Positions 5,506 through 44,887 of a stretch of DNA of 64,000 bases are shown one piece after another. Made by a program: the position numbers and the translations under genes. The notes beneath the pieces are model-generated. The model worked only from the letters and a program-made list of their open reading frames with translations. It was not told the origin of the DNA and did no database searches. How positions within the stretch are numbered: position 1 is the stretch's first letter; each line of letters starts with the position of its first letter. Where the stretch lies: assembly GCF_964355755.1 (NCBI RefSeq), contig NC_092670.1, positions 2,656,201 through 2,720,200 on the forward strand, in the 5' to 3' direction. The stretch comes from Antedon mediterranea (Eukaryota; Animalia; Echinodermata).

Positions 5506-5728
5506 TAAGTGGAATATGGTTTTTATGAACTTTCGGTAACCCATATATACACGGAACCACGCAAGCAATTGGTCTTAGTTTATCATACAAATATTGATCG
5601 ATGGATCCTTTCTCTTTCAGTTCCTTGAGAAGCTTAAGCAAACGGTTCCTGTAAGTGTTGGTAGGGTCTTTCATTACGAGTAATATTCCTACTCGGAGGA
5701 TTGGCATGCCTGAGAATATTGGTTACCT

Positions 5729-6229: not shown

Positions 6230-6665
6230 TTTCTGCTGCATTTCTGGGTGGTTCAGGTTCATGACTTCTTGATCGTTTTCTTCTTGATCGTTTACTTTTT
6301 GATCGTTTACCTATAAAAAAAACATAACAATACAGTATAGATTACCATGGGTACTCTCTATTTATATCTAAGTGGGCTTCATTTGTAACATTTATATTTT
6401 CAGGAAATATTGTTAGTCTTGTTAGTCCAAGTGTAAATACAGTATCCAGTTTTTATCCAGCATTTATTAAGTAATAGATTATAATTTACTTATGCGTTTA
6501 TTGGAAATTTGTTTGTAATTCTGTAAAACTGATGTCCTGATTTCCTAAATAAGTAGAATATTAAGACCTCAACTTTATTGAAATAAAACATACTTTCTGC
6601 TGCATTTCTGGATGGTTTTCTTCTTGATCGTTTACTTTTTGATCGATTTCTTCTTGATCGTTTAT
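6230..6665 (-). CDS. Two duplicated basic RS-like exons (6665-6594, 6310-6230)
   Basis: DKRSRRNRSKSKRSRRKPSRNAAE and KRSKSKRSRRKRSRSHEPEPPRNAAE; both phase 1-1 with GTATGT donors, inside a ~365 bp local duplication. Confidence 0.55.
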
Positions 6666-9600
6666 CTATAAAGAAACATATAACTCAGGATATTCTTAAA
6701 GCAAAACATATAAGAAATGTTATGTGTATGGAAATGAATCGTTGGCCAAAACTTATATTAAATACAATTATTAGATTTAAGAATTTTAATTCAAGGTACC
6801 AATTTATTAATGAATTTGAAAAAACTTGTGATTATATTAAGTTCGATTTCAATGCCATTCTTAATGATATATGTACAGGTACTGAGATTGATATGAACTG
6901 GGTCAAGCCATTTGAAAATACAATTGGAACAATTAGTAGTTGTATTATTGTAGTTTTAGTTTGAAAATAACTTTTGTAATAGCGTCGAGTCAAATTTTAT
7001 GTCGTTATCTCAAATATGTTTCAGTTTTTATTTTTCATTGTTTTTGTATTGAAGCACCATCTACGCATGTGTGCCACTGTTAAAAAAGTGTTGTTCCAAA
7101 TAAATATTGTTATTATTATTATTATAGATTACCATGTTTACTCTCTTTTTATATCTACTGTAAGTGGCTTCATTTGTAACATTTATATTTTCAAGAAACA
7201 TTGTTAGTCCAAGTGTAAATATCCAGTTTTGGTTACCATTTATTAAGTAATCTATATATAAATTTACGTAAGGGCAAAATTCGGTAAATCGCGCCTTACT
7301 TCTAGAATTTTCACTCGATGGTATGTAAAGTTGGTTCGTACTTTCGGTACTGATTTTAACCGCCTGATGTAACCCTGTTTACTAATTAAATTGAGTTAGA
7401 TAATTAGTTATTGACGATTAAAACGAATTTAGGTTCAACGATTTGCCCCAAATAGGGGTGTTTTCCGATCGTGGTATACACTGTCTAATGGATGTCCGTC
7501 TTGAAAAATACCCGCCAAAAAAATGCGAGGAGGCTTCGCATTTTTCTATCTCCTCCTACGATAATTGTTTTTAATAGCTGAAAACCGGTTGAACAGCTAG
7601 AGTACACCATCATAATGTTGAAGACAGGCCGATTTTCTTTAAAAAATACTATTTTGATAGATTTAATATACGATTATACAAATGTATTGATTTGCGATGA
7701 ATGGAACATCCCAATCTCTCAGTCTGCCAGAGTTTGGTTTAACACAAGTACTGTAGGTAAATTTATGAGCCCTTGGTTTAACACATACGGTAGGTAAATA
7801 TATGGGCCCTTTGAGAATAAACTTGCAATACTTTGACAATACTGTAAATACCTATTAACTATTTTTCATTTGAATCGAACATTTCTTACTGTGAATGTTC
7901 GTACTGTTAGATGTAATATAAAAATATATACAAATAAACTTTATTACTGAGACTGTGGATAGGCTCTACTGTTAGATATACAAATAAACTTTATACTGAC
8001 AGTTCCTTCTCAACGTTTGTATTAATTAATAATTACCAAAAATATAAACGTCGTAGTGGTGTATCGTGACATGTACTTTAATATTTCAATCGATTATGAC
8101 AGTGACAGTTTTAACAAAGTATTAAATCGCAAATGTTTTAGGCCTACTGTATTTAGAGGTATATTATTTATAGGCCTATAAAACATGAACAAAATATTTC
8201 GTTACTCAGTGGATAAAGAATATATTTAAAAATTGTTCCTCTTTGTACCTATCCGCTTTCCCATCCCTCAACCCAAATGTTACATAGCGAGGAGGCTTCG
8301 CATTTTCCTATCTCCTCCTACGATAATTGTTTTTAATAGCTGAAAACCGGTTGAACAGCTAGAGTACACCATCATAATGTTGAAGACAGGCCGATTTTCT
8401 TTAAAAAATACTATTTTGATAGATTGCTAGAGTACACCATCATAATGTTGAAGACAGGCCGATTTTCTTTAAAAAATACTATTTTGATAGATTTAATATA
8501 CGATTATACAAATGTATTGATTTGCGATGAATGGAACATCCCAATCTCTCAGTCTGCCAGAGTTTGGTTTAACACAAGTACTGTAGGTAAATTTATGAGC
8601 CCTTGGTTTAACACATACGGTAGGTAAATATATGGGCCCTTTGAGAATAAACTTGCAATACTTTGACAATACTGTAAATACCTATTAACTATTTTTCATT
8701 TGAATCGAACATTTCTTACTGTGAATGTTCGTACTGTTAGATGTAATATAAAAATATATACAAATAAACTTTATTACTGAGACTGTGGATAGGCTCTACT
8801 GTTAGATATACAAATAAACTTTATACTGACAGTTCCTTCTCAACGTTTGTATTAATTAATAATTACCAAAAATATAAACGTCGTAGTGGTGTATCGTGAC
8901 ATGTACTTTAATATTTCAATCGATTATGACAGTGACAGTTTTAACAAAGTATTAAATCGCAAATGTTTTAGGCCTACTGTATTTAGAGGTATATTATTTA
9001 TAGGCCTATAAAACATGAACAAAATATTTCGTTACTCAGTGGATAAAGAATATATTTAAAAATTGTTCCTCTTTGTACCTATCCTCTTTCCCATCCCTCA
9101 ACCCTAATGTTACATAGCGAGGAGGCTTCGCATTTTCCTATCTCCTCCTACGATAATTGTTTTTAATAGCTGAAAACCGGTTGAACAGCTAGAGTACACC
9201 ATCATAATGTTGAAGACAGGCCGATTTTCTTTAAAAAATACTATTTTGATAGATTGCTAGAGTACACCATCATAATGTTGAAGACAGGCCGATTTTCTTT
9301 AAAAAATACTATTTTGATAGATTTAATATACGATTATACAAATGTATTGATTTGCGATGAATGGAACATCCCAATCTCTCAGTCTGCCAGAGTTTGGTTT
9401 AACACAAGTACTGTAGGTAAATTTATGAGCCCTTGGTTTAACACATACGGTAGGTAAATATATGGGCCCTTTGAGAATAAACTTGCAATAGGTTCGGAAA
9501 ATGTTAAAAACCAATTTCTATTATTTGAATCGGTAAACAGTTTCCATTTATTATACATTGATAATGAAACATGAAATATTCCTATTTATGTCCCTCGAGG

Positions 9601-12600
9601 TTCATTACAATTTATATTTAGTAGTCCCACGGACTTCATCTTAGCCACTCCCCCGAGTGCTAAGGCCAAATTTATGATACCCTACTTTCTATGTAAGTTT
9701 AGTTACAGTTAGTTCTTGACGATAATACAACGAATTTAGGTTACACCCTTCGGCCGCGAAAACGTTTCTGTACAAATATGATACCGATTGGCTTTATTTC
9801 ATTCAACAGCGACCATAATCTCGCCAATTACAGGATAGATAAACTATTTTATTATTGATGTGCTTATAAATTAAGACTCATGTAAACAGCTTGATTACAT
9901 CATTTTACAGACAAACGAAACTTTTTTAAACCTACTGTTTCAATAACTGAGTATAATACTGTATACGTTTTCATAAGTAAGTGCATATACATTTTCGTGT
10001 TTTCATTGACGAGATTGTAATAGTAACTTCAGTAACTATTACAGTACTTATTTATTATACGACACAAGACAATTGTATCTGACAGGTACGTACATTATTC
10101 TAAAAAATAAGTCTAGATAGATCCCTTAGGCGTCATAAATCACAGGCCAACAAATCAGTACTCATGACAGAAATTCGACCCAGTTTGGTTCACACAAATG
10201 TTTACAGGAAGTTCAACACCACAACCGATGATTTGCCCTAAATATTTAGGTAGACTACAGTTTAATTTTTCACTGAATAGGAGCTTGAATTTCCGATTTC
10301 CATTTCGCAGAATGTCTAGGTCTATTTATTTAGTTTGGTTCTTATAATATATAAATACAATCAACTTTATTACTGCGGTTCCATCATCACCACCACGTGC
10401 CGCCCAATTCCCGTACATACATTTCCATTTCTCCCTAATTTCTTTAATCCACATAAATTAATGGTCCTTTATGGAATCCAGTATTGGTTTTGTTGTCTCT
10501 ATTTCTGAATACCCCAATTAGGGGGACACTTCCGTTTTTGTTTAGTGTCCCAAAAAAGTCCCCGTCCGTGGATTCTACTGTATTCGAGAACCATCTGTGA
10601 GCACCCCTAGATGGTACGCGAGCGAAGCGAGCGTGCCATCTAGTAGATATAATTTTAGTTACAAACACAAAAAAACTATGATATTAAATGAATCTCAATT
10701 TTGTAGCAAGTTTTTTGTTTCAAATTATTTAACAATAATTTTTATTTTTAAATGATTTACAGTATGGATAAAACTTAGTGTTAACCATTAATGCAATCAA
10801 TGCTAAGAAAAATGTACTGTGCTTGAGAAAGTTTGCTAAAAACATATTATTTATCCATGTCTAGATTTACATTTTTTTTGTTTAAAGTATTGTAGTGGTA
10901 CTGTTGGTAGTCTCTTGATGCTAGCAGAGTATTAAGAGTTTATTAACAATATGTTTAAAATGAGCTATGTGTAAGAAATAAAGGCAACATACCCAAGCTT
11001 GAACTTCTTGATTTTTCAAGCTCCCCTAAAAAAAGAATAAAAATACAAATCTCAGTTAAAATTACGGTACTTAGAAAATAAGTACGGTTTAGGAAGGCAT
11101 TTAAACAAAAATACAGATTCAGCCAGTCTAATTTGTGCTGGAAAAGCATTCCAGAACACGGGGCTTATATACTATAGTTACAATAGTCCATTCTGTCATT
11201 AACACTAAGGTTAGATGGACATGTTTATTACAGTTACCATACTGTATTATTGCTTTTTATATAATAATAATTGATTATTCTGTCTGATAATATTTTTCAA
11301 CATAATATGTAGGAACAATGACAGCAAATGCACAATGTGCCTTCAGTGGTTGCCAAATTTAGGGCATGTTACTTAAAACTTGGATGTAACCACTGTTTAG
11401 TTGATGAAAGAAAGTTAGTGCCTGTCATTGCCTTGTAAAACTTGTATTCAAAGAACACAACAATACCTCCAATAAGGTTATCTCCATTGAAGCTACTATT
11501 TCCAGGTACTTCGCTCGGTAGGATTGCAGATTTATTTTGAACTGTAAAAAATTAATTAGAAAAGGAAAATTAAAAATTTACACATAGGAACCGTAGACTT
11601 GCTTGGATCAACTCATACAGTTTTTTTAAAAAGTAAAGACAGACTATTTACAAAGATGCACTACTGTTGAAATATTGCATAAAAGCAATATAACAAGAGT
11701 ACCAACAATTGTTGATGAAAATTACCACAATCATCATGCACCGCAAAATGAAAACTACAGCAATTTGATCAAATCCATTATGTTTTGGTTGTTTTCTGAA
11801 TGAATGAATGATTTCTAAAAGTTTCTACAACCAGTATTTGTTCACTGTTGTGAATAGTTTGAGCCAAATTAATGTAGTAAATTAGATGGCAGTGAGCGAG
11901 AGTAAGTGGATAATGTGATGGCACTTTTATGAAAAGTGTCTTTTCAATTCTTCCAATTCTAAGTTATGTAATGTATAATAAAATACCTTTTAGTACTTGC
12001 ATAGGTCCTTTAAGTTCCATGCGGTTTAAGTTTTTAATAAATGGTTGCATATTTCCTTCACAGATTATGTTTCTCATCTCAAGGTCCATAATCAAATGCC
12101 ACTGATCATCATAAACCTGTTCTGCATCATTATAAAAGTCATTCATTTTCCGTATATCTTTCTCAGTCAGCTCTTCTCCAAATTGTATCAACATTAGTCT
12201 GTGAGGAGTGAATTTCAAAATTGGAATTTTTCTAACATTTTGGTTTGTTCCAATTTCTTTGTAAATTTTACTTGCCAATCCAAATTGTTCTGTTGCTTTT
12301 ATGGTTTCATAAAACAAAGTTAAGTCATGGCTTGTTAAATGTTCTCTCTCCATTAAGAAGTTTAGCAGCTGATTTGTGTTAGATGCTTTATCTAACTGAC
12401 CATTTGACAAGAGATCTTTATACAGAATTTTCAGCTTATTGAGTAAATGACGACGATCATACCACTGTGAAAATTTTAGTTTAATGATTTTAAAGTTAAC
12501 TTGCTCTGGAGTTTCTACAAAAATAAGAACAGAAACATTTAAAAAACAGAAATATTATGGAAAATAAACTATTTTTGGTATGTTTACAATACCAAATTAC

Positions 12601-15600
12601 AATAAATTAAATTGTCAATGCCTAAACAATATTGAAAATGACACCAATCCTTTTGAACAGAACATACTTTCTTGAGGACTATCTTCCCGGATTGATTGTC
12701 TACCTGTAAAGAAAGTAGATTGGTACAGTAGTTACAATATCAGTTTGATAAAAGAAATACAAGTTTTATATTATTCATTGCCTTATTAAAGTAGATATTG
12801 TTGATATTGAATACAAAACATACTTTCTAGAGGACCTGGTGGGCTAACGTCTTGTTTACCTGTAAATAAATGGTTTAATATTATAGTTGAAATGTCAGTA
12901 GTGTTATATCAGTAGTAGCAGGTACATGTATTTGCTGTAACTACATTTATTTATACACAGTTGTAGGATGCAGTAAAAGTATTTCTGCATTATGGTAGTG
13001 GATTACTGACTGATTACTTTTTTAATTTTTTATAATTGGACTACTGTACAAGGAATCATAGATAGAAACAAATTGTACAATTGTAAAATGAATTCATTGA
13101 ACCAGGGTCATCATCTCTAAATCACATGTGCCTCAATTGCCAAAATTTCAGTTCATAATTCGCATTAGTTAACACTGTTTAAATATGTGACACGTCCACC
13201 TCAATTTTTGGTTGTGAAAATATTTTAGTGTTTTCATCAAGCAATTAATAAATATCTGACAAGGCTGAAAGTTGCTGTCCAAGCTACTGCAAGTTTCCAA
13301 TCCATATTGTAGCCTTCAGTATAGGCTATCCTAAACTGGAAAATCATCATCAAATGCTTTCTGGTAAAATTGTGAGATTTTGACCCATCATTATGATTGT
13401 TGGACAGGTCTCCATGAGACTATACTTTTTTCTGAGTAAATATTGCATAATATCTATAAACAAGTAAAGTTTGCATATCTCAACTCTATTGACTCAACTC
13501 AACTCAATCCAAGTTTTTTTGGATGGGGAAAGGGGGGCTACTTGACAATGCAATAAAATAAGAAAAATGTTTTTACCTTGTTTTTATTGAAGGATATTCA
13601 AACTTTATTTAAATTTTCATTAAACCAATTGAGGTACATTCAATTTTTAGCAAAATCAGAGATGATGGTGACCCTGGACATTTCTGTTAAATTGGTTGCT
13701 TTGTCATGGAATGACATAATATAGAACCACAGTTGTTTTTAATCTCATTGAATCCCATACAACACATGTAACATACCCAAGCCTGAACTTCTTGATTGTT
13801 GAAGATCCCCTGCAAAAAAAAACTTTTATCTTTGAATTTCATACACAAATTGAACATTACTACTGCCAATTACTGAAGGTGTTATTGTTGAAAACACATT
13901 TTTAATAATATTTAGGGTGTGTGATCATACCAAACTTAATTGTTGTTGTTTTCAACAGTAGTTTTTAAGCTTCAAAGAATTGCTATCCACTCAGACACTT
14001 CAACTAAGAGCTTATTAGTAAAGATATCAGGGTCTTTGTAGTTAGTTTCCAATATTTTTTAGAAGTTCAAATAATGCAAGAAAGAATAATGAAAGAAAGA
14101 AATGACAACTATTGTACTTTTAGAGATCAAGATGGAGAGTAACTTTTATTCATGAAGCATTCTGGGAACTAAGAATTATGAAGTCATACAAATATTTTAG
14201 ATACAGATATGTGATAACACGTATATATATACCCTAATAATTTACTTTATTATTGCTGTTATCACTTTTAGTTTAATACAGTACTTACATACAAATGGTA
14301 ACTCATGTCTTTCATTTGGTTTTTGTAGTGTTAGTATCTTTGTACTAAATTCTTGTTTCTTTTTTTTCTTGTTCTTTCTTGTTACAATAAACATACTCCA
14401 ACTTTCAACTTTCCATATTTCATTAGCAGTTATAGTCTGTAAAACAATTTACATCTTGTTTAGATAATTACTCATGGTATAGAACGTTGGTACAATATGC
14501 TACTAATTTTTCCACTTAATGTGTACTGATTAAGATATTTTATAGTTAATTGGCTATTAAAATACATTTAGACAAACCAAAAATATGGATATTCCAGAAT
14601 ATTGCACACATTGTCTGTGACCAGCACACAATATGAATCTGCTTTATTTCTCTATCCACAATAATTTTTACTAAAAATTAAAAATAGCAAGTGTTTGCTT
14701 CACGTTTTTACTTGGGGTCATGTTGAATGCACAAAACGAGGTATTTTTCAGTGGTTACCTAACACATTTAATAGTGTGCTTGTTACTTGTTTGGATATTG
14801 ATTTATTTTATGATAGTTTAAATGTATTTAAGTCCGATCTTTGTTTATGTTGTTGTTGCATATTTGAATGTATTATTACCTCCGCCAAGGAGGTTATGTT
14901 TTCACCCCTGTATGTTTGTGTGTGTGTCTGTGAACAGCCTGGAGGCCACAGTTTTTATCCGATTCTCACCAAATTTATCAACAATGATCTATGCCTCAAA
15001 AGCTCGGACGAGTTCGAATTTGAGGGGAAAAGGTCATAGGTCACAACTAACAAAAAAACTATTTTACTGCCTAGAGATGACAGTTTTTATCCGATTCTCA
15101 CCAAACTTAGCCACAATGATCAATGACACATCATATAATTGTGGTTAAATTTTGAAGGGTCAGGGTCAAAGATCAAGGTCCACAAAAAACTAAAAAAAAA
15201 GAAATAAAAAAATAATAAAAAAAAAAACCTCAGTGGGAACTGAGAGGCTGGATACATAACCATTACCATTTCCTCACTGAGGACAAATATTAATACAAAA
15301 TACAAAAATTACACCACACTGTCATCCACAACTTTGTAGTGTGCAGTTAACATATTTACACTTAGAACTAATAAAAAAATATGTAAAAAAAAAATATTCA
15401 GGGGGCATTTTATGTAGGGGAATTTTACAGTAGGCGGAGGTTTGTACTCTCGGAGTACCCTCTAGTTATAGTTTATTATGTTTAGATTCAACCTGTTAGT
15501 GGCGGTTTCATCGCTGTTGGTTGTCAACTGAATAAAATAAAATAAAATAAATTTTAATTTCTGAAATTCAGTAAACAGCTTGCATACATCATAAATTTAA

Positions 15601-18600
15601 AATTTGACCCTGTAGAATTTTATTCAAATATTTTGATTGATGACGATGAATGGAATGTTCCAAAGGATCCTCAGGATATTCCGAAATAAATCATTGAATA
15701 AAACCAGTACTGTATGCAAAAACATTTTGGGGTTATAATGAACTATTTTAGAATCTGTGTACTTTGTAAAAAAAATGTTGCTCAACAGCTTTAACCAAGT
15801 ATTTGGGGTTTTCAGGGAATTTTTTAGTGTCGGAATTGATGAACGAAGATTCCTCGAACCGTTCGATTATGATAGCCTAAGATTAAACTCTAGGCCATAG
15901 GCTATAGGTATTTTTTTCACTGGTTAAGAGTATTTCCTCATTGGTACCTCCTCCTTCCTCTTCCTATTATTTTTATACTCTATAATTTATCCTAATAATT
16001 TAACATTTATTGAATTAATCAAATTGTTTCATTCATAGATTTTAATATTTTATTTATTAATCTATGACTTTGCACTTATTTGTATAATCATACCTGTGTT
16101 GGAGGCTTCACATCCCAATCTTCTTTGTTTTCTACTTCAATGTCCATATCAGTGTGCAACAAATCTATATATTTGGGAATTTGTATAGGTATTTCCCCAA
16201 ATAAGTGACTCTCTCTGAATACCTCCTGAAAGTAATGTATAGAAGGAAATCTAGATATAGTCCGGAAGACAAGTGAGACTTTAGTAGATGCAACCCTGGG
16301 GAGTTTGAAGGGTGGAAATCACTTTTCCAAGCTATAGAGACCATGCCAGGCTGCAGGCAGATTTCATCTACATCATCTAATTTTTTTGGATGCCACTTGC
16401 AGTATTTTTTTTTCAATTTGTGCCCTTCTGGAAGAAGAGAGAGCCTCTAACAATGCTGGCTATATGCTTTTATTGTAGGATAGTCAACTTACATTTAAAA
16501 GTAGATACATTTTTTTTAAAGTATAGTAGGTTTGACATTGATTTTCATGACTGAAGCAAATACTCTATTCATTGGGTGGTGACATATTATACAAATTTTC
16601 AATTTTATTACGTATTGAATTACAATCAAAATAATATACAGTGTGACTTTTACAATAAACAAACAATAAATTACCTTTTCTCTATCAGTGTCCCAAGTTC
16701 TTACTCGAAGTTGATACTTGTTAATCAATACCTTTCCAAACACACCTAACCTTGCTGTTTTTTTACAAGGACCTCTATTTGTTATTGTAGGCCTACCAGT
16801 AAGACCATATTTAGAAAAATGTTTTGAATGTACACAACACTGTCCATTGTTTAAAGAAAAGGTTATGTCATCATCTTCATTACTGTCCAGTTTTATTCTT
16901 CTCCATTCACCTTGACACGTTGTAACAAGTAAAGTGAATTCCCAACACTCTTCATCTACAGCATTATGTGGAAATGACAGCAAGCAGTGGTTTTTAAAGA
17001 CTGTGCCTGGTGGTCCACATCTAACAACAGGTGAAAGTATTGTTTCAAGAGGATCTGATAACAAATCACTAGGAAAAGAAGTGTTTTCTAGTGATACTTC
17101 AACATTCAATCCTTCTTCAATTGCTCCAGGATTTATCACCAACTTTGTGTCTTTATCCTTAAGATAGAGAGTTTCGCCTTTGGAGTCCACAATTAACTCC
17201 ACAATTTGGTCTGTGGAATCAAAATGCTTTATAAATTTAATATATGTTGTAATTATATGTGGTTTATTAATATTATAATAATAATAATATTAATAATAAT
17301 AATAATTGCCATGTATTTTTTTTGTGTGCTGTCTTCTGTTCTATGATTTAGATGTTAAAATCTCTTAAAGGTGAAGCTTTAAAATTACCACAGTACATTA
17401 CGGAATAACTGTTAAGCAAATACACAAACATGGTAATTACACTTTTGTTATATAATTATTTTTCTTTTTCCTCCTCACCTGGTATATAATTAAAAATGTT
17501 TGTGTTTAACTCATAGTATCTCTAAAATATTTTGGCATTGAAAAGTCCATATTAATATGCTCTCTAAAAGAATAGCTTACAATACCTGGCTCTGATGCAA
17601 AAAATGTAAACGGTTTTTGTTGTTTTTCAGTTGATTTATAGGAAGAACCTATTAAAAAATAAAATAAGAACTATAATCACTAAACAAATTTTATTATCCT
17701 TAATACTACATTTTGGAAAGCTGTCCATAAAGGTCCTTCTTCTAATTTCAGTTTCATAAATTATCAATTTGATATGTTTGTAAAACTAAAATAAGGAGTA
17801 TGCACATATCAAAATTGGGATAGTTTCTCATAATATTTTTTAAAAGATGCTTTCACCTTCATTTTTAACAAATCAACAAAAAATATGTAAAACAATTATT
17901 AATTTTAAAAAACTTTAAAATAATTTTATTTCAATTATAGGAATCATGCGTTATTCTATAAGTAAGGTATACCTGCTAGTTGTATTTCATATCTTTTTTC
18001 AACAATATCTTTCTGAAACATATCAGCAAGATTGTTACTGCCATGTTGAATTAGTGCAATGCAAAATACTTCAAGTTGATTCCATTGGATATCAATATTG
18101 GTTCTCCAAAAATTCATCATTTCTTTGGTAGATGTAATTAGCTCACTTCCAAACTTTGTCACCGTTAATGAGCTAAGACCCAGATGAACACCAAACAATT
18201 TCCAGTTATGAATTTCTTCAGATACTTTTCTAATAATTTGATCATCCACGTACCCTATGATAGAAAAATTAGCTTTGACTTTGAATTATTGGCTATTCCT
18301 AAGTAAATTAACTTTTAAAATTTGCAATCCTTAGATTTTTAATGCCATAAAAAACCTACTAAATCTTACCTTCGTTATGAGATCGTGATGGTATAGCTAT
18401 AAAAATAAATAAATAGATATAAATTTGTCAATCAGTATACATCTTTATAATATTACTAAAAACAATCTCAAAAACTGTATTCCAAATTTTTTTTAAATTC
18501 AACACTATTGGACCATACCAAACTAAAACTACTTACTTTCATCTTGAGATTTTAAAGTTTCTGTAACAGTAAATATATGTAAATTAATCAATAATGCAGG

Positions 18601-21600
18601 GTGAATCCAGTAACGTAAAGGATACTGGTACTAGAGGGTGTAATGTGGTCTGATTCCTGTAAAAGTTGGCTTGTGAGAGATCGGTCACCATTGCATAGAA
18701 TGGAACACCAACTTTTCTGCGTAGAATAGACCTACTGTAGAACCGTTTTTTATTTGACTTGCAGGCCAGTTAGACAGCCTTTTTTTCCCCATTTCGAGTG
18801 GGGTTTGTCTGAAACAACTCAGATCCACCACTGATAATGTCAACACATTGTACTATGGGATACTGCAAAATATCAAAATATATGTGTATAACTTTAAATG
18901 CCTTGCCTTTTGGTAGCACAGCTTCCCCAAACAATTTACGGTAAAGTTTAACTTCCATTTGATTGCTTCCACAAGGCAACACATCCTGGTCAAACTTGCG
19001 AATAAGATGCATATGAGCATTTTGAATGTTTGGACTAGATGCACACGGGATGTACATCCTTACTTCAAGACCTCGGGCATCCTTCTGACTGAATACTTTT
19101 AACTCTTTTTGAAGGAAATGAAGAACCTAAAAAAATCCATGTATATTACTGCAGTATGTAGAAATAACACATTAAAAAAATAAAATTTGTTATGCTAATT
19201 ATTTTGGCAATTTTTTTTAAAATTCTGAACAGAAGTACTTATCACTGTCATATATTTAACTTTATTTATAACAATCATACGAAAGCCCATTAATGCCATT
19301 TTAAGTATATGTTTTTCGAACGTAATCCGTTCTAACGAATTAGTAATTCGTTTGAACGGATTAATAATCTGTTCAAACGAATTAGTAATCCGTTCAAACG
19401 AATTGCAACATATACAACAAGTGCCATTTAAAGTATATGTTGTAATTCGTTTGAACGGATTACTAATCCGTTCAAACAAATTACTAATTTGTTCAAACGG
19501 ATTACTAATTCGTTCAAACGAATTACTAATTTGTTTAAACGGATTAGTAATCCGTTCTAACGAATTACTAATTCGTTTAACGAATTACTAATTCGTTTAA
19601 ACAAATTAATAATTTGTTTAAACGGATTACTAATCTGTTTGAACAAATTAGTAATTCGTTTGAACGAATTAGTAATCCGTTTAAACAAATTATTAATTTG
19701 TTTAAACAAATTACTAATCCGTTTAAACGGATTCCTAATTCGTTTTAACAGATTATTAATCTGTTTAAACAAATTAGTAATTCGTTTGAACAGATTAGTA
19801 ATCCGTTCAAACGAATTACAACATATTCTTTAAATGGCACTTGTTGTATATGTTGCAATTGGTTTGAACAGATTACTAATTCGTTTGAACAGATTACTAA
19901 TCCGTTCAAACGAATTACTAATTTGTTTAAACAGAGTATTAATCTGTTCAAACGAATTAGGAATCCGTCCAAACGGATTAGTAATTTGTTTAAACGGATT
20001 ACTAATCTGTTTAAACGAATTAGTAATCCGTTTAAACAAATTATTAATTTGTTTAAACAAATTAATAATTTGTTTAAACAGATTACTAATTCGTTCAAAC
20101 GGATTACTAATTCGTTCAAACGAATTACTAATTCGTTCAAACAGATTATTAATCCGTTTAAACAAATTATTAATTTGTTTAAACAAATTAGTAATCCGTT
20201 TAAACAAATTAGTAATCCGTTTAAACAAATTATTAATTTGTTTAAACAAATTACTAATTTGTTTAAACAGATTACTAATTCGTTCAAACGAATTACTAAT
20301 TCGTTAGAACGGATTACTAATCAGTTTAAACAAATTATTAATTCGTTTAAACAAATTAGTAATCCGTTTAAACAAATTAGTAATTCGTTTGAACGAATTA
20401 GTAACTCGTTTGAACAAATTAGTAATCCGTTTAAACAAATTAGTAATTCGTTTGAACGGATTAGTAATCCGTTTAAACGAATTACAACTTATACTTTAAA
20501 TGGCACTTGTTGTATATGTTGCAATTCGTTTGAACGGATTACTAATTCGTTTGAACAGATTATTAATCCGTTCAAACGAATTACTAATTCGTTAGAACGG
20601 ATTACTAATCAGTTTAAACAAATTATTAATTCGTTTAAACAAATTAGTAATCCGTTTAAACAAATTAGTAATTCGTTTGAACGAATTAGTAACTCGTTTG
20701 AACAAATTAGTAATCCGTTTAAACAAATTAGTAATTCGTTTGAACGGATTAGTAATCCGTTTAAACGAATTACAACTTATACTTTAAATGGCACTTGTTG
20801 TATATGTTGCAATTCGTTTGAACGGATTACTAATTCGTTTGAACAGATTATTAATCCGTTCAAACGAATTACTAATTCGTTAGAACGGATTACGTTCGAA
20901 AAACATATACTTAAAATGGCATTAATGGGCTTTCGTACAATCATAATAATTTTCCTTTACTGTGAGTATGTACCCTAAGAGTCCCTTTGTGTTGTGCCAA
21001 ACGGCACTCGTTTGTCTGTCCACAATGACAGTGTCTGACTTGTACACCAGGGTGGGGTAACCCCCTACTCTTCTGAAAGATGAACAGGGTTATTTATATT
21101 ACTTGGATCTCCAGTTATAAGTCCTTATCCACAAAGACTTGTTCTCCCACCAGCACTATAGTTGAGGAGTGCATTGAATTTGTTGATTTTATGGCTGTGG
21201 TTTAATTGTTCCTGTATTATCACTTTCATATCTACTAGCCTACCTTCTTACAGACTTCAGGTAGTGGCTTAATGTCGTCTTCTAGAGAACTATCAGCCTT
21301 GATGCTCTTTGTTCTGACTATTGTTGTCTGCAATATAAAATAATGAACCTTGTAGTTTGACACATTGTAAATGGTAGTCTGTCTTGTATTTTTTTTAATG
21401 GATTGATGCTTGTTATTTCATTTGTCGGAGGTAAATAAATTTAACAGATTATAGCAATCCATACAACAGACATGGTCTTGATATATTATATTGTACAGAT
21501 ATATTTAAAATGTTTATGGGGTGAACATAGCCAAGGCAAACCTTTCATTTTTGTTTTTAATGTAGAAAATATGTGATTAAAATTGTTTTAATGAAAGTTA

Positions 21601-24600
21601 TTGGTTATTTTTGCTGTAGAATACTAAATTATAGAGATTAAAATTTAAACACTGATGACATGGCACTGGGCCCTTTAATTCAGCTTTTGCTACTATATAT
21701 CAAGTATAAATTTTAAAAATTTACCTGTAACATACGGCAATGTTTGATGGTAGCCACATATAGAATGACCAGATGTTCAGCATCAATATTCAATTCTACA
21801 TGCTCATACGATAGGCGAGGTTCAACATCTTCCATTTGAAATTTCTCAATGAATTTGGTTGCAGCACGTTGAAAGAGATCATCTGGAAGATAGCTACCAA
21901 AATCATGAAAAAGTGAAATTGCACGCTTGTCTTCAAATTGAGGCTGTGGTGGGGGTTCTGGTTTAAGACGCGAGAGAACGTAGAAAATGTGTTCATCCTT
22001 CTATAAAATGAAAAAGAATATATCTTATAGATTGATAGTTTTGTAAAGAAGATGAATTTAATACTTGAATGCATTCCTGGTTTCAATATCAATACCTTTT
22101 TACTAGCACACATTAAACCAAACTTTTCCATGAGAGACACAAAGAAGTTAAAAGTCTCATCAGAATCACAAAACTCTTTCCACAGATATTTTAACAAACC
22201 AACTTCTAAAATACCAGTGTCCAGTCTTTGCCAAGCTTTCCACATTACTGGCTCCTATTAAAAAATAAATAAATATCAGTGTAGTTTTCAGTTAGTCAAA
22301 TTATTTAGGAATATTTAATAAGGACATTAGTAAGAAGATGTTTTAGTAACTCTGAATATAATTAGGATATTGAGAATATTGATTCTTGTATTACTGTATA
22401 CCTGTATATTTCATTTTACAGTTAGAATATACAGTATAAAAAATTTCACAAAATTGTTATTGTAATGATTGTACACTGTACCTATTTCCTAATAAGTATA
22501 TTTTTTTTTATATTTTCATAAAAATTGTTTAAAAATAAAAATCTTACTTTTCGCTTTTTAGCATGATGCATACTGAATTTATATATATAGATACTAGAAT
22601 AAGAATACATATTGGAGAGAGCAGTGTCAAAATATTTATTTGCTAACCATATTTTCAGGCTCTTTAACAGTAATGAATGTTTTTGACATGTCAACTAGTT
22701 TCATCAAATCTATAACTATTATATCTCTTAGTGCCTCATCATCTGGGTAGTAGAGAATCTCGACAATGTCATGTAAATACTCAAGCAGGAATCGCTGATT
22801 TTCTGTATCTTCACAGTCTTTTAGTAAAATGTGTACCTGTAAGAAAATAGTTTCATAATAAACATTTACAATCTGAAATAACTCTAATGATTTTAATACC
22901 TTATTTTCATCATTTTTGTAATTAATTTCTGGATTGCATTTAACTAAATGTTCATGGAATTGTCATGATTCATCTATTATACAGTATAAGCACTTATTAA
23001 ATGTATAATATCATCAGTATATGACGATGCAACAGTACAGTCAAGTCTATCCAAATACAGATCAAAATGGTAGTTAATTTTTTTTTAAAGCCAAGTAATA
23101 TGAATTGTTTATAAAATACTTTGTTTTCCATATGGCAGTGATCATTTATAAAAATAATAATATTTGAATTTACAGATGCATTTATTGCTTTTTTGCTTTT
23201 CAGTGTGTACCAATTTCTATATTATTATTACATCAGCATATTTTTAAAACGATTATTTTCCTGCTTGTATTTCACCTTAGAAACTTGTAAATAGATGTGC
23301 TCTTTTTTCAAGCTTTGGATTTCCTGCTGTCCTCGCAGCCATTTTATTGGCAAAGTGCGGATCATTTTCTTGGAAAATTCCAGTATATGTTTCATTATGA
23401 CAGAAGCATTGCTCTGTGCAAATGGTACACTGTTTTCAATGGTAAAGATAGTTGAACACACCATAGCCGCATATGGTTTGTCTTTTAGGGCTTGCCATAT
23501 TCTTTTCTTTATTTCTGCAAGCTGTAATAAAGTGAATTATATACATGTTGTCATCAGAGTGTATGATAAACTTTAACAGATTGATTATCTAACATTTACT
23601 AATTTCAAAATATACAAATGAGGCTGTAAAAAGTTTAGTAAAACATTTACGGTGAACATTCTTTTTATCACCAGAACCAATTCTTTAGGACTTTGTAATA
23701 TAGATTCATTTTACCTTGCATTTCTTTTCTTCTTCAGTTCCTTTAAGGCCATTTAAATGTGTACCTATCAGTAATACAGGAGGACAAGGCTGACCATTTA
23801 TCTTTGCATCAGGTCTGCTGTTTGTGTATATGGAACGAATCCAAGAAAGAATAAACTCCAGATTTGTCATTCGATGTGGATATGTTTGACCCTAAATTTA
23901 AAAATATAATAGTAACATCTCAATCACTTGTTATTCATTGGTCAACTATTCTAATGTAGTAATACAGTTTTTTTAGTTTAATCTGCAAATAAACTTTTAC
24001 CACATATCTTTGTGGTAGTAGACAATCACACATTTGAAGCTTAGAAGCAAGTTCACCAGACGTGTCCAAGAGAGGTATTCAAACATTTTTCAAGAAATGA
24101 AATTAATAAAATAGTTTGTTTTATGAATTATATCATTGAGAATTCTTCTTAAAAGCTAATAGTATAAATACAGTATTGTGACCAAATTATAATTTAAAAC
24201 AAACTTATTATGATATTGCTTACAGATGTTGGATCCAAAACCTTAGCTGGGGCATCGAGATCATCACAAAGGTTGAATACTACACAAATAACCGCAAAAG
24301 ATACCATAAAGATCTGGGAGATCAATAAAACAGTGGCATTCAATGAATGGTGAATATTATACAGATTTTGACTGCTTAGAGGTTAAATATAAGATTTAAC
24401 ATCCCCGAGGGAATGATATTTTGTTCGAGGGAATATTTATATTTCCTGAAGCGCTAGGTGAGAGAAATATATCATTCATAATAATCATTCCCTCGGTGTT
24501 GTCAAATCTGATATTTTACCGATATATAAAAGGCAATATCTGTTATATTAAATAGCCAACAACAAGTTGAATATTTACTGCTGGGTCGGGTGTAGCTAGG

Positions 24601-27600
24601 TCGGGTGTAGCTAGGCCTCCTTTGCAATAAGCCTGCCTACTTAGGCATTGCATTCACCTTACCTTGCGAAGAATAATATACAGATAATTACTAATTAATG
24701 TTCCTTGGCAATAATATATTCATTAGGCCTAGGTCGTTTAAATTAACAGAAGAATTTCCATCAATAAGCCTACGTACATTAATAATAATAATATTATTAT
24801 AAGGTAGGCAGAATAAATTATAATTTGTGTTATTCGAGGAGCCGAATCACCGGATGTTCAGCGCTCCGCGCGTACCAGGTTACTACCGTGAGTATTAACC
24901 AATCACAAACGGTCTTTCATAACATCCAGGGAGGACTAATAACAAATGAGGGCGTTTAAATAGTTTAGTTGATTAATTTCTTCAAGCAAGTTGCTTGGCG
25001 CAACGGAAAAAACGTTGTCTTTTGATGATGTGACTAATCATCGTGAGTTCAAGTCCCAATATGATGACTTTTGTTTATTTATCGCCAAACGTGAGTGTTG
25101 CCACAAGAAAATTACACAGTCAATATCATGGTACTCGAGAATTTGCTGGATTTTATATGTTTAAAGACAGAGACACAATATTTATGCGAAAATTACTCAG
25201 TCAATGCTCGAGGATATATACGATTTATGATCCTCGCAGCAACGTATTTACATAGGCTATGTAATATAAAAAAATATCTTTATTATCAATGAAATTTAAA
25301 TGTTGAATTGTTAATGTAGCTTTTTTGTTTCAGTAGTTTTAATTTTTAGATTTAAGAATGTTGCGTCTATACTACTACTAAATTTATTACAGATTTGTGA
25401 TAGAGATATTTGACCAATATACTAATCAAAAATTATTACTTATTATTTTTTTAGTGTTGGCCTTTCCTAACTTTGTTTGTCTTATATTAGAGGAGGAAGA
25501 CCTGTGCAGGTAGAGCTAACCTGTTTCACACAGAAATATGTGTTGGGAATATATGTGGAATAAACTAACTCCATGCTGGTATCACTTTCTGTCAGAATGG
25601 GTCATGCAGGCATTGGGTAGAATATTCAATATATACCAAATGAAAGTTGGTATATACCATACTTAATATTCCTTTCCTGGCTGATTGATAGCTATATGCT
25701 GGTAACAATGCCGGCATCAATTCCAGCATTTTGTCTCCACTTTATGTAATAAAATGTAACCACTTTACCCGCTGCATCACATGATAAATGGGTTGTCCTC
25801 CAAAATCTGAGATGTTCATCACAAACTTGTCGCTTGTCGTCTTGTCATCATTTCCTTCTTTCTGAAACTCAATTTCTATTAATTCTTCAATTTTTGAAGG
25901 AATCTTTGTCTGGTCATCACTTTCTTCTTTCTCAATCTTTGTCTTGTCATCATTTCCTTCTTTCTGAAACTCAATTTCTATTAATTCTTCAATTTTTGAA
26001 GGAATCTTTGTCTGGTCATCACTTTCTTCTTTTTCAATCTCTATCTTTGAGGGAATCTTTGTCTGAAGGTTTTCTTGCTCTATATTTAAAAATGTTAAAA
26101 AATTGTACTAAATTCATTAAAATAAATTCATTAATTGACAAATAAAGTATCCAATATTATGTTTCTGTATGTAATATATTATTTGAAGGTTTGCATGGCA
26201 AAATCAAATGTTGTTATAAAGTTTGCAGTACACCATGTATATTTAGTTATGAAAGAACGGTTGGGTTTCTCTACATTTCGATCAGTATACTTTGAGTGAC
26301 ATTCTCACTTCTGAGGACGATAAAAGTATATTGATCGAAACATTGAGAAACCCAACAGTTCTTTTCAGAACTATATATATGTGGTGTACTGCAAACTTTC
26401 TGTATGTAATTTTTATAGGCCTTTTATTATGATAATTTATTATAGGATTCTAATTATTTTATCAATGGTAATTAAAATTAATTAAGAAAAGTACATTGTC
26501 ATTGTGATAGTGACTTTTCAATTGCCATATATCTTGAAAGAAAACCTTGTCAATTAGTAAGAGGAGAATTTGGCACATGCCTCTTAAGATTTTCCTATTT
26601 CATTGAGTTTGTTTTGAGAATAATAACAAATATAGTCTCTGGTTAAAACATGGGCAGAGGTGCCTTGAAAATAGTAGGTCTAGTTATTTCGAGACACAGA
26701 GGCCATCAAACAAAGAATTGAAAGAGGCAAAGTATATTTGTTTTGAATTTTCAACCACCTCTTTAACCACCTCTTCCATCTTAAATCGAATATCAAAGCC
26801 CAGGTCACAAGTCAGCCCATGTAAAATTCAGTGCTTAGTTTTGGTAGAGCAGAACAGTGAAATATTAGGTGTGAAATGTAATAATAATACGCCCTGCACT
26901 TGAAATTCCTATTAACATTTTTTATTACCCTCATCCATTTTGCTTTCTTCTATTTTAGTTGATTGTGCTGGATTTTCTTTTGACTGTTCTTCTATTTTGT
27001 TTTCTTCCACATATTTCGTGGGAGCATTTTCATTGCCAGAAGCCTGTTTTGCTGATGCTGTTGCACCTTCTTCTTGTATCATACTATTCTTGTTATCAGA
27101 AGCATTTTCTGTTGATGCTGCTGTTGTATTTTGTTTTCCTTTCACTTGTTTCACCATTTCTCTGGCAACTGCTTTCTCATACATTTCAGAAACTTTAGCA
27201 TAAAAGAAGTGTAATTTACTTTTGTATATTATTGTCATGCTTGTATATATACACAGTATTATTTTAAGAATGTTACTATCTTTTTTAAATAGGATAAGAA
27301 TGGAACAAGTCTGGGACAAGGTCTTTGCACTCAAACACAGGATTGGCTAGCATGAATAGCTAAAGCAAAAACAAAAACAACCAATCCTGTGCCTCTCTTT
27401 CTTTGGTGCTAATTTGGTTACTAATTTTGTATTTTGCATTTTTTTTTTATTCTCATGTTACTTACAAGTTTCTGGTGATTGTTCTTTCAAAATTGTTTCA
27501 TTATTACCTTGAGTGTACACTGTTCTTGTTTCTGCTATACCATCAGTTACTTCATGTTTTGGATTAAAACTACAGAAAAATTAATAAACTAAATAATGGC

Positions 27601-30600
27601 CATACAGTATTTTTTGTTTTATTGTTTTATTATCATTGTCTGCCTATATTTTAACGATTAAATGTAGTGCCCCAATGCAACCAATTGGTTGCAATGGCAT
27701 TTATGTTGTTATATTGTGTATAAGGTATGTTTTTCCGTCATTAGTAAATTCCCTTAAATCCGTTTTAATAAAAATGGCTAAACTGAGAGGAAATTATGTT
27801 TAAATGCATATTGAATCTAAAATTTACACAGATATATACCCCGGGATTGAAGATAGAGTTTCAATTCAAAACAATCTCATTATACTTTTCATCTCATTTT
27901 CTGTAGATTGTTTTAAACAACATTCAAATCAAATAAAAAATAACATTTATTTCCAAAATAGTGGCATCACCAATAAAGCAAATGCTTGTGTCAGGGCTGC
28001 CAATACAAAACAGACAAAAACAAACAAAATATATAAATATATAAATCACATTTAAATAAATAAATGTCAAGGTTTTCTTACCGTTTCCTTAGTAAAGAGT
28101 TAATAGTAGAAGTTTTTCCTACTCCCTCAAGACCTACAAAAATAACTCTGCCCTGTTTAACTTCAGTTTTTCCTTCTTTCAGAGCTTCATTAAATGCATT
28201 AACTGCTTCTGGTCCTCGAGCCCATATCTCCACAGGTAAGTCTATATACAAATTAATTAGTATAAAAATGAATATTTTATTTCGTTGAAGGGAGAGAATA
28301 ATTTCATATAATGACCGATTGACAGATTCATTAAATTCAAAGAAAATTAGGACAGTCAGGCTTTTCTCCTCATTTAATGAATGAATACTTAATAATTAAT
28401 TATTTGTTTTATTTTATTGTTATAAAGTAAATTGTTACAGTATATGAACTTTAATTTTGTGATAATCATCAACATCAACTTCATCTACTGTAGGCCAATA
28501 TAAAAGGATACTACAGCTCACTATGTCGGTCGGTTTGTCGGTCGGTTGTCGGTCGGTCGGCAAACAATAACTTGAGCATGTGACTGCAGTCATCTATATG
28601 GCCTTGTTATATTTAACAACACATTTAGGATTGGACATTTAGTGTTTTTACAATGAAAATAATATTCTCCATTGAACAAATTAAAACAACAAACAAACTA
28701 TATAACTCAGATTATGGCTGCACTGAATAAATTATACATGTCATGCTCTGTATGTTTGTTTTTGGTGGTGCAAAATATGGCAAAAATATATATGTGTATA
28801 AATGCATTGTGTTCACTTTATTGAATTACTCTTTCCTTTTTGGTAATGAATGTAAATTAAGTGGGTCAAGAATAAAAAGTCAAAATCTAGTTCATTTTAG
28901 CTGTCAAATTGGAGTTAATTGTCCAAGCACAACACTCCTAGATCCACCACAGAGAATATTGAAATTTTTTATTGTATAACTTCGACCAAATGTTGTTTTA
29001 TTTGTTTAGTCTATGTGCATATGTTGGTCAAAATAAATGTTGAATTGAAATGAAATACATCCCTTGCTCATGCAACTGCTCCTCGGAACTGTGCTTGTCA
29101 ATATAATAATATTGTTATTACATTACATTGCCTGCTAGATTTAAATTTAGTATGTCAAGAATCAACAATCTGAAAATAATAAATATCACATAAATATAAT
29201 CACAATAACTTACTATCAATATTGCTTTGCCCTGGTAATTGTAATCCTCTTTTTGCATATTTTCCTTGTAATCCTCTTTTTGCATATTTTCCTTTCCTGT
29301 TAAACGATATGTTTCTCAATGAACACTGATTGGCAGCATGGTGGATGTCGTCATCTGATAGATTGCAATCCACCATGTTAAGCGTCATCAGCTTAGGAGA
29401 CATAATGAGTAATGAACTCAGTGAATTAACATCAAGGTTGTGAAGGTTACTATCAGAGATATCGAGATGATATAATTCTAATTGAACTTGTTTGAGAGAA
29501 CATTCTGAGACAAAGTCATGAAATACATCACGTGATAGATTCTGAATCCAAACACCGTCACATCTATCTTGAATGCCTAAAATGTGTGCAATAACTCTTC
29601 CCTTTCGCTCCAATGCCATCTTACTACAAAAGTCACTGATACCAAAACCATCATATTGCATACAATACAATTGCATAATTAGACGTATGAAATGCCCATC
29701 ACATTGTACACCTGGACTAATGTAATCAATAAACATTCTTATGGAGGTTAATATATCATCCAAATGATTATTTATTTCTAAATCTTTACTTGTCATGTAA
29801 TTAATTAATTCATTTATCACAGCATCTTTATGTTGTTTTTTAACAAAGTTTAAATCACTTGGCAGATAGCGATATGTTGACAAACGATTTGTAACCCAGT
29901 GCTTGAGGAAACCGCCAGCTTTATCACCAAGGAAACCAATTGCAAATTCTCTTGCTCTGTATAAATGCTCACTCTCTTGTATCACCTCCCACTCATCATC
30001 ATCCAATGGTGTAAGTAATGTTCGTACATCTGAACATTCATTCTCCATACCTTCACTTTCACATAATTTGCACAAGTAAAATCCCACCAATGACTCTACT
30101 ATCAACTTGTGAGGAGGCATAAAAATGTTATCAAATTTAGATTTTGAATTTGACACTTCTTCGTAAACAAACCCAAGTTTTAAGGCCATATCAACCATAG
30201 CTTTGTTCGAATGTTTAGTCAAATCCGTTTTGTTTATTGAAAGTTGGTTTACTTTTAAGCTATCATACATACATTTCCCTAATAAAATCATAGCATTTAC
30301 ATACTTCACTGGTATTTTTTCAAATTCAGAAATCTTTGTTATGTTTTCTCGTTTCTGATTGATTCTCGACTGATTCAAAATACTACGAAAGAATTCTTTG
30401 AAGAGGTCAGTTTTATCTTCGGGGAGACTTTGATTATCTTCCCACAATATACAAAGTGTAAGAAGTATCATCGGGTTTTTGCACATCGCATACGCTTCAG
30501 GATGTTTTAGCTCTCGCTCTCTTAAGCGACGCATTCCAATACGCTGCACCATCAACGTAGGCCTAACTGTTTCAAGATGCGCGTCAGTATCTAATTCCTT

Positions 30601-37890: not shown

Positions 37891-39404
37891 TTTTCGAAAC
37901 ATGCGTTTGTCTGCAAAAACAAATTTTAACATGACGAATATAATCAGGAATATGTTTTATGTTGTATTTTTTATTTTTGCGCTACTTATGTCTGTCTAAT
38001 TGTATGTTACCGTCATGAGCTGGCTACAGCATGTTAGAATTCTATTAGAAGGGGTTCGAACTAATTAATCTGCCAGTAAAGCATTTTTTAGAATTTCATA
38101 TATTTTTAGAAGATCTGTTTTCAGAGCTACAGTCTAAACTGCTCTTTTTATATATAGCTTTAACACACCTCCTAAAATGCCCCTTTTTCACACATTTTGC
38201 AATGATTAACACACATTAGAATGTTACAAATACAGTACACTGTGCCGAGACCACTTAGGACTACATTGTGGTATTCCAATTTCAATGTTTTTGTTGAATA
38301 TTTTATTATTGTATCATCAACCTGTGTTCTTTCTTTAAGGTTTTTTTTTCAATAATAGAAGAATGTGATCAACTGTATCGACTCATTTGTATATAATATA
38401 TCTAAAAAAAAAAACATGTTCCGATCCTTCTTCCTGCTTATTTAGAGATTCAATCCATTCAATCACTATCAATGTTTGGGAATCTTATATTGGTCTATAT
38501 TGATTAATATTAATATAAGCTGAATGACGAATGACAGAACATCATGTCAACGTCATTTGCGTGAACAAGGCTACTGAAAGTAGCTGAAACGTAGCAAGTA
38601 TGTACTTGTCAACTGGTTTAACTAAAAGTTAACCTTTATTTATTTAAATATTCATTGAAACCAGATGAAATTTTTTGAGAATAAGCTGAATTGTTTAAAT
38701 AATCCGCTAATTGATTCTGTATGATCCGTTCCAGAATTCTAGAAACATGAACAATTACAAAATTGTCTATAGTTATTTAAAATAATCACCAAGTCGGATA
38801 CTGTACATCAGTATCAATAATTGTAAATGAAAATGTTTTCTTGGATCATTCCAAGAAAGAAAGAAGTAAATGAAATGTATACATTCTGGATTATTCTTGC
38901 TTGAATTTGAATCTAGTTTTCTAATGGAAAACGTCTGCCCTTACCAAAGCAGAATGCTTAAATAGCCTTCGCTAACCATTCGCTAGGCATTCGAATGCTA
39001 ATTTACAGGTAATTTTTAGAATTTAGGCATTCATGGTTAAAACCACTTAAATGGAATGCTAAGAAAAGTTTCCAAGCATTCTTTAGGAATGCTTACAAGA
39101 GTCAATAAGCATTCAGAAGCTATCCCGAATGGCTGGTAGTGTCAATGCTAAAGATCATTGCAAGCATTCGGTGGAGATATTCTGAATGGTAGTGTGAATG
39201 CTAAGAACATTGGTAGCATTCAGGAGATATTTTGAATGGTAGTGTGAATGCTAAGATCATTGGTAGCATTCAGGAACAGATGTTGAATGGTAAACAGGGA
39301 AATAAGTGAATGCTCAACCAATCAGATCAATCCTCACATACTTCCAAAAAACAAGGGTGTCACGAAAGCTCAGACCACGAAAGCTCAGACCCCCTAAGGA
39401 CCTA

Positions 39405-44875: not shown

Positions 44876-44887
44876 AAAGGGGACTAG

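Follow-up and report, generated by a model that had tools for sequence, protein, structure and literature searches.

The 64,000-nucleotide stretch of Antedon mediterranea DNA analysed here (NC_092670.1, positions 2,656,201 to 2,720,200; hereafter the window) is AT-rich animal DNA with introns, and its minus strand carries a predicted gene fusing an NLR to a Roco GTPase and a ZU5-UPA module. Within ZU5 lies a His-Phe-Ser (HFS) motif, a likely site of self-cleavage, and downstream of it come UPA and a tandem DED (DED2). The public proteins closest to this gene are from the same crinoid, and several of them (P0001, P0003, P0004, P0008 and others) guided placement of the exons. The resulting model comprises 27 predicted exons from 37910 to 10993, with AG acceptors throughout, 26 GT donors and a single GC donor, and its joined frame of 2,295 codons contains zero stops. 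The predicted domain order of the 2,295-residue product is DED2-NACHT-short LRR-Roc-COR-Death-ZU5-UPA-DED2 (Table 1).

The first exon, encoding the N-terminal DED pair, is 53% identical to the N-terminus of the crinoid NLR P0174, and the NACHT exon contributes one or two LRR-like units where relatives have many more. At about 32997-32880 on the minus strand, an intron contains a degenerate repeat of the first part of the NACHT exon, interrupted by an in-frame stop. The NACHT-to-Roc junction is based on exon phase and the paralogue model P0008 only, which joins the NACHT exon to Roc. The Roc insert of 184 amino acids is of low complexity, with 70% E/K/D/Q/S/T/N. Further downstream, the paralogue model P0001 holds COR-Death-ZU5-UPA-DED2 in one chain, 97.2% identical to the exon model over 789 residues, and the paralogue model P0004 runs Roc-COR-DED2-ZU5-UPA-DED2. 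Exon shuffling is the most likely origin of the gene, with a Roco-ZU5-UPA-DED2 gene replacing the LRR exons of a DED2-NACHT-LRR gene.

Two candidate lines of read evidence were set aside. A 2,614-base contig of run X5, which was guessed to be RNA and contained 0.04 of the words, covers 18907-19128, matching the limits of one COR exon, with 26 differences; it was read as a spliced paralogue, uninformative on the window locus. A joint at 16713-16813 in two DNA runs showed indels of equal depth and was attributed to a divergent paralogue rather than a deletion.

Table 1. Predicted features of the fusion gene in the window, with residue numbers of the exon model.
Feature	Position	Strand	Residues	Evidence and remarks
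N-terminal tandem DED exon	37362..37910	-	5-180	First in-frame ATG 37902; Pfam DED E 0.002; AG/GT ends
Large NACHT exon with first one or two LRR-like units	29214..31325	-	NACHT and helical domains 182-719; one or two LRR-like units 720-884	Pfam NACHT E 8.5e-19; AG/GT ends, phase
Roc (seven exons) and COR start	23276..28241	-	Roc, including the 184-residue low-complexity insert, 887-1305	Pfam Roc E 0.0017 on P0003
COR, A and B parts, five exons	18907..22836	-	COR 1310-1644	Pfam COR-A E 1.7e-10 on P0003
GC-AG intron donor	18906	-		Single non-GT donor of the model
Two micro-exons, Death exon 18254-17973, linker exon 17648-17586	17586..18560	-	Death 1662-1756	Pfam Death E 0.024, weak
Alternative terminal micro-exon, seven residues then stop	17456..17478	-		Used by public model P0003; would end the protein before ZU5
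ZU5 exon with HFS and first part of UPA	16675..17210	-	ZU5 1777-1916	Pfam ZU5 E 9.4e-16; UNC5B E 1.2e-7
His-Phe-Ser motif	16813..16821	-	1907-1909	Predicted scissile bond Phe 1908/Ser 1909
Two exons completing UPA, 16225-16094 and 14436-14289	14289..16225	-	UPA 1926-2049	Paralogue-guided; fold of model
Three linker micro-exons, 33-36 bases each	12668..13809	-		
C-terminal tandem DED exon	11987..12514	-	2088-2259	Pfam DED, c-FLIP match, fold; then basic tail, end not fixed
Tail exons 11541-11467 and 11025-10993, Lys/Arg/Ser-rich micro-exons 6665-6594 and 6310-6230	6230..11541	-		True 3' end not established

Position and conservation of the HFS motif

As the sequence-only reading of this DNA had reported, the motif occurs in the context CCVHSK-HFS-KYGL inside the ZU5 exon. 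Chance alone would give 0.16 HFS tripeptides in a protein of 2,295 residues, so position and conservation, rather than the tripeptide by itself, carry the case. In alignment, HFS falls on QLG of UNC5B, and the aligned Leu is L677 when counted from cysteines C663 and C670; PMC3210808 names these cysteines and treats L677 as the equivalent of CARD8 F296, which immediately precedes the cut. The ZO-1 ZU5 chain terminates at HF in the same alignment column, and a structural match pairs model residues 1-132 with ZO-1 chain 3-118, ending on Phe. We modelled the ZU5-UPA region of the P0001 paralogue (97% identical) with AlphaFold from a 69-row alignment, obtaining a predicted local distance difference test score (pLDDT) of 92.8 and a predicted template modelling score of 0.86. 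Strand 124-131 of this model ends at His, Phe-Ser forms a loop, and the next strand spans 134-141; the same geometry, with the post-cut strand remaining paired with ZU5, is described for CARD8 and rat NLRP1 (PMC3210808, PMC8081665). The model thus puts HFS at the known scissile position, in the loop before the last ZU5 strand. Of the earlier placement at the ZU5/UPA border, the equivalence to the PIDD and CARD8 site stands, but the motif lies strictly within the ZU5 fold rather than between two folds. The same reading had named a model that moves HFS off the PIDD-equivalent site as a refutation; alignments and model agree in leaving Phe there.

Conservation was examined with a profile-free search, in which the best 150 of 156 relatives together with Antedon paralogues gave 162 aligned rows. 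Once the row of the window itself and a duplicate isoform were removed, 160 remained. The site lies outside 13 of these, another 12 stop at HF, and 135 are informative. HF is present in 106 of the 135, and in every one of these 106 the following residue is Ser, Thr or Cys (Thr 73, Ser 20, Cys 13), the three nucleophiles of this autoproteolysis chemistry as given in PMC9162469. Among the 29 informative rows without HF, 14 have S/T/C at the nucleophile column; HF dipeptides elsewhere in the fetched proteins are followed by S/T/C in 30 of 181 cases. Because the rows are related, a tree of 147 rows was built with the three motif columns left out. On this tree, 107 tips imply a minimum of 21 changes between Ser, Thr and Cys, against 31 for shuffled labels. 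In the clade that contains the crinoid proteins, xF[S/T/C] is present at 15 of 15 tips. HF is absent (0/13), and the nucleophile mostly lost, in a clade of 13 tips with support 0.999, one member of which is an Ig-TSP1-ZU5-UPA-Death receptor; this fits the account in PMC10084454 of canonical Unc5 as lacking self-cleavage and of Unc5CL as self-cleaving.

Conservation of HF with an S/T/C nucleophile makes self-cleavage of the window protein likely, provided that the ZU5 exon is used, and identifies the motif as the family default. The earlier emphasis on an intact HFS as something special is therefore not borne out, and many invertebrate ZU5-UPA proteins (106/135 rows) appear to keep the cleavage chemistry, mostly with Thr rather than Ser. 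We do not claim the HF[S/T/C] pattern as new; the literature on Unc5CL, on comparison of GAIN, ZU5 and Nup98, and on Nup98 chemistry may already state the consensus.

The 12 relatives ending at HF were considered as a new split-gene form and dropped, as seven of them (P0075, P0085, P0107, P0113, P0118, P0148 and P0156) carry PDZ and/or guanylate-kinase domains in the ZO-1 layout and the other five are ZU5-only pieces with the same ending. All 12 mimic a permanently cut N-terminal piece. Elsewhere among the relatives, HF[S/T] ZU5 modules are fused to RING/B-box, RhoGEF-SH3, TPR arrays or Ig (P0050, P0021, P0060, P0065, P0048 and P0052), widening the set of candidate self-cleaving proteins.

The ZU5-UPA module and its tandem DED effector

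The closest structures to the P0001 ZU5-UPA model are UNC5B and ankyrin-B. UNC5B matches with a Foldseek E of 8e-20 and a template modelling (TM) score of 0.80 (Z 24.2 over 268 residues, root-mean-square deviation 2.9); further matches are ankyrins (Z 16-19), CARD8 (Z 16.3) and rat NLRP1 (Z 15.4). Pfam detects ZU5 in all 69 alignment members, UPA in 33 and Death in 27, and its FIIND profile matched neither the window open reading frame nor P0001 nor any of the 69. The Pfam UPA profile gave no match to the window protein itself, and UPA is assigned through the fold match to UNC5B. NLRP1, CARD8 and Nup98 chains were absent among the 52 matches of a profile search of PDB sequences. By type, the module belongs with UNC5, UNC5CL, PIDD and ankyrins rather than with the FIIND family, and may work like either. 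UPA exon 14436-14289 contains a Lys/Arg-rich insert, 14 residues longer in P0001; this insert and the Lys/Arg/Ser-rich tail (6665-6594, 6310-6230) all lie C-terminal of the cut and could be nuclear or nucleolar targeting signals.

The succession of UPA and tandem DED downstream of HFS, part of the sequence-only reading, is confirmed by the UNC5B fold match and by three observations on exon 12514-11987. Pfam DED matches its first repeat (E 2.5e-6, below the curated cut-off), the c-FLIP tandem DEDs are its sole PDB sequence match (E 0.011), and a model of the pair (pLDDT 87.2, last ten residues of low confidence) finds its best folds in the caspase-8 and c-FLIP tandem DEDs (E 4e-4, TM about 0.6-0.7). 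The pair is most like the N-terminal DED pairs of crinoid NLRs, with 33-39% identity to 12 of them against 21-27% to four other rows, so a DED caspase is no more plausible a partner than other NLRs. A DED pair comes directly after UPA in P0001, P0002, P0004, P0006 and P0012, all of one clade, and in none of P0021-P0157, a lineage-specific swap of a Death domain (DD) for DED2. The label of a FIIND protein with DED is not unheard of, in that a figure legend of PMC3210808 annotates mammalian FIIND proteins as DED-containing. Complex prediction for ZU5-UPA with the C-terminal DED pair, run without alignments, scored 0.00 and gave no answer.

Proposed release of the effector and alternative readings

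Starting from the directly observed motif, its position, the fold, the conserved S/T/C nucleophile and the open 27-exon frame, we tentatively favor, at somewhat less than even confidence, a PIDD1-like course in which constitutive self-cleavage serves as maturation and is followed by NACHT/Roc-COR-driven release or clustering of UPA-DED2. By analogy with PIDD1, NLRP1 and CARD8, the Ser side chain would attack the Phe-Ser bond with an N-to-O acyl shift, and the strand starting two residues after the cut would stay in the ZU5 sandwich and tether the two pieces, predicted at about 219 kDa (N-terminal) and at least 45 kDa (C-terminal). The same analogues suggest that cleavage would be a maturation step and not the trigger. 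Less firmly, activation might proceed through assembly of NACHT and Roc-COR or through a conformational change, comparable to the platform formed by PIDD1-CC after processing, and the exposed tandem DED might then recruit a caspase-8-like protease, FADD or the DED pairs of other crinoid NLRs. Processing of the PIDD1 kind is favored over an NLRP1-type degradation tripwire because the module is closer to UNC5B and lacks a FIIND match.

Several observations weigh against this PIDD1-like course. P0003, the public model of the window locus, is identical to the exon model at 801 of 808 residues and then takes a seven-residue terminal exon that stops before ZU5, and the paralogue model P0008 reads into the ZU5 exon out of frame; the full fusion may thus be a minor or absent product. 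The P0008 frameshift lies in a T run just before the splice and removes the same part as the short terminal exon, and the two together could represent regulated or repeated loss of the effector tail. Locally built profiles found Roc, COR and ZU5 in 0/31 long NACHT relatives, 25 of them crinoid. The NTPase switches deviate as well: Walker B of NACHT (31325-29214, minus strand) reads DGLEE versus DGLDE in 6/6 crinoid NLRs checked, and Roc, with G1 and G3 present, ends G4 (23891-23715, minus strand) in Asn versus Asp in paralogue P0004. The meaning of the G4 change from Asp to Asn is that known from small GTPases. Together these deviations weaken switch-driven release; they are compatible with a decoy role, and a pseudo-enzyme or decoy is possible. 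In addition, the homologue rows are related and their counts are not independent events, as the 21 switches seen against 31 after shuffling indicate. Finally, the evidence does not tell conformational release from degradation.

The alternative that survives best, though we consider it unlikely, is the NLRP1/CARD8-like tripwire proposed in the sequence-only reading, by which a pathogen protease or ligase would cause proteasomal loss of the N-terminal piece, leaving UPA-DED2 to polymerise and recruit a DED caspase. The predicted effector-NACHT-LRR ... ZU5-UPA-effector layout does resemble that of NLRP1, and the fold matches the rat NLRP1 and CARD8 FIIND over the whole module. Moreover, it is through the post-cut strand that ZU5 prevents release in rat NLRP1 (PMC8081665), the fold of the DED pair resembles that of the filament-forming caspase-8 tandem DEDs, the low-complexity Roc insert could serve as protease bait, and a sea urchin caspase-8 gene is listed in PMC6394757. 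The tripwire itself is nonetheless unsupported so far, with UNC5B at Z 24.2 versus 16.3 for CARD8 and FIIND in 0/69 alignment members. A DPP9 checkpoint needs Pro after the Ser. The window protein has Lys there, and Pro directly follows the nucleophile in only 5 of the 106 HF rows, making a prolyl-peptidase (DPP9) checkpoint of the NLRP1 kind unlikely. The protein model also begins within a folded DED pair (residue 5) rather than with a long unfolded N-terminus, and degradation would destroy the DED pair, Death domain and two NTPases of the N-terminal piece.

We hold it to be slightly more doubtful that the ZU5-UPA-DED2 exons lie outside the main product, either because the short exon 17478-17456 is mostly used or because the NLR and Roco halves are separate or decaying genes of an array and HFS is a leftover. 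The end of P0003 at that exon, the frameshift of P0008 on entry to ZU5, the exit of P0007 inside COR and the broken intronic copy of the NACHT-exon start all agree with this reading, as does the finding of the whole architecture in no single public protein among those compared. Against it, the 6 kb between the ZU5 exon and 10993 contain ten exons, every one of them open, in phase and flanked by canonical splice ends, and together these share 97% identity with P0001, a contiguous paralogue model. The Roc exon, for its part, lacks its own start in the model, and P0008 joins it to the NACHT exon. Least probable is an uncleaved scaffold whose ZU5-UPA folds back on the death-fold domain as in UNC5B and ankyrins, because, although UNC5B and ankyrin-B are the nearest structures, autoinhibition of UNC5b ZU5-UPA-DD without cleavage is documented in PMC9162469 and the window ZU5 forms a long branch within its clade, the non-cleaving receptor clade has lost HF and mostly the nucleophile, and the window protein keeps all three residues.

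The motif is ordinary for the ZU5 family; the predicted NLR-Roco fusion protein is the unusual part. Full-text searching, with supplements and most subscription papers outside its reach, found no publication that describes a NACHT-Roc-COR-ZU5-UPA-DED protein or treats the architecture of crinoid NLRs; similar combinations may be listed in the supplementary domain tables that accompany surveys of sponges and cnidarians. Published work reports NACHT combined with ZU5 in cnidarians and sponges, a sponge NLR figure that bears a COR label (PMC12909245, PMC8260672), NACHT with DED in Hydra (PMC13133943), and echinoderm NLRs with Death domains (PMC11508797). It also presents ZU5 as a widespread autopeptidase that is expanded in sponge (PMC3482391) and predicts autoproteolysis for invertebrate ZU5/FIIND fusions (PMC8195603). 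If both the cut and the fusion are real, the protein offers a natural test of ZU5-UPA as a release device for any death-fold effector outside NLRP1, CARD8 and PIDD1, and it bears on the coupling of NLRs to caspases in invertebrates without ASC. It is conceivable, although improbable, that crinoids independently built an NLRP1-like one-chain sensor with Roco in place of LRR, in which N-terminal tampering would free a UPA-DED2 seed, nucleate a DED filament and activate a caspase-8-like protease or DED-NLRs without CARD, PYD or ASC. An equally speculative part of that idea is that the Roco GTPase would act as sensor or decoy, wired through a self-cleaving ZU5-UPA of the UNC5 type.

Upstream of the fusion gene and on the opposite strand, three long open reading frames at 44048-49581 (plus strand) are of long-terminal-repeat retrotransposon type, with gag-like, reverse transcriptase, RNase H and integrase regions. 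Minus-strand fragments at 427-1642 and about 5495-5722 resemble remains of retroelement reverse transcriptase/endonuclease, with no Pfam match at E 1e-5 (two tested), and the last exon of the public model P0001 resembles a fragment of the same kind. An AT-rich, satellite-like tandem repeat in a COR intron, at about 19300-20900, yields spurious long open reading frames. A UPA intron contains a high-copy interspersed repeat at about 14870-15470, and a block in a tail intron (about 7400-9600) is repeated about three times.

Comparison with known systems

PIDD1 provides a close parallel for the motif, with HFS at the end of ZU5 just before UPA in both proteins. According to PMC9162469, the cut of PIDD1 at S588 releases the UPA-DD piece PIDD1-CC, which builds the caspase-2 platform. 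PIDD1 (LRR-ZU5-ZU5-UPA-DD) has two ZU5 domains and a DD, whereas the window protein has one ZU5 and a tandem DED and adds NACHT, Roc-COR, an internal Death domain and an N-terminal DED pair upstream. By architecture it is not a PIDD1 orthologue, having a single ZU5, a tandem DED after UPA, and NACHT with Roc-COR upstream. The PIDD1 ZU5 chain was absent among the PDB matches, and the likeness is drawn here without direct sequence comparison.

UNC5CL and the invertebrate ZU5-UPA-Death proteins belong to the same Pfam class and share the HF[S/T/C] column, and Unc5CL retains proteolytic activity (PMC10084454). In contrast to UNC5CL, the window protein has no transmembrane anchor, carries a DED pair in place of the DD and is embedded in an NTPase protein of 2,300 amino acids. 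The nearest solved fold to the module is the cytoplasmic ZU5-UPA-DD of UNC5B (PDB 3G5B), which has QLG at the site and does not self-cleave, where the window protein has HFS.

NLRP1 and CARD8 share the equivalent Phe position, the same fold (Z 15-16) and the predicted layout effector-NACHT-LRR ... ZU5-UPA-death-fold. NACHT is detected in the window protein by Pfam with its one or two LRR-like units, and its link to ZU5 runs through the predicted exon chain. NLRP1 and CARD8 have SFS, CARD and FIIND, in contrast to HFS, a tandem DED and no FIIND match; relative to NLRP1, the window protein has almost no LRR, an inserted Roc-COR-Death segment and Lys instead of Pro after the Ser. The catalytic His of NLRP1 and CARD8 lies upstream (rat H942, CARD8 H270), whereas in HFS proteins that role is given to the motif's own His (PMC9162469).

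The crinoid DED2-NACHT-LRR NLRs of Antedon and Anneissia share the N-terminal DED pair and a NACHT exon of the same family, and a DED pair is present in 19 of the 25 crinoid NACHT matches. These NLRs continue into long LRR arrays, in place of which the window protein has Roc-COR-Death-ZU5-UPA-DED2. The Roc-COR tandem is shared with Roco GTPases of the LRRK2 and DAPK1 class; unlike them, the window protein combines a long Roc insert and a G4 Asn with no kinase domain, and is fused to NACHT and ZU5-UPA.

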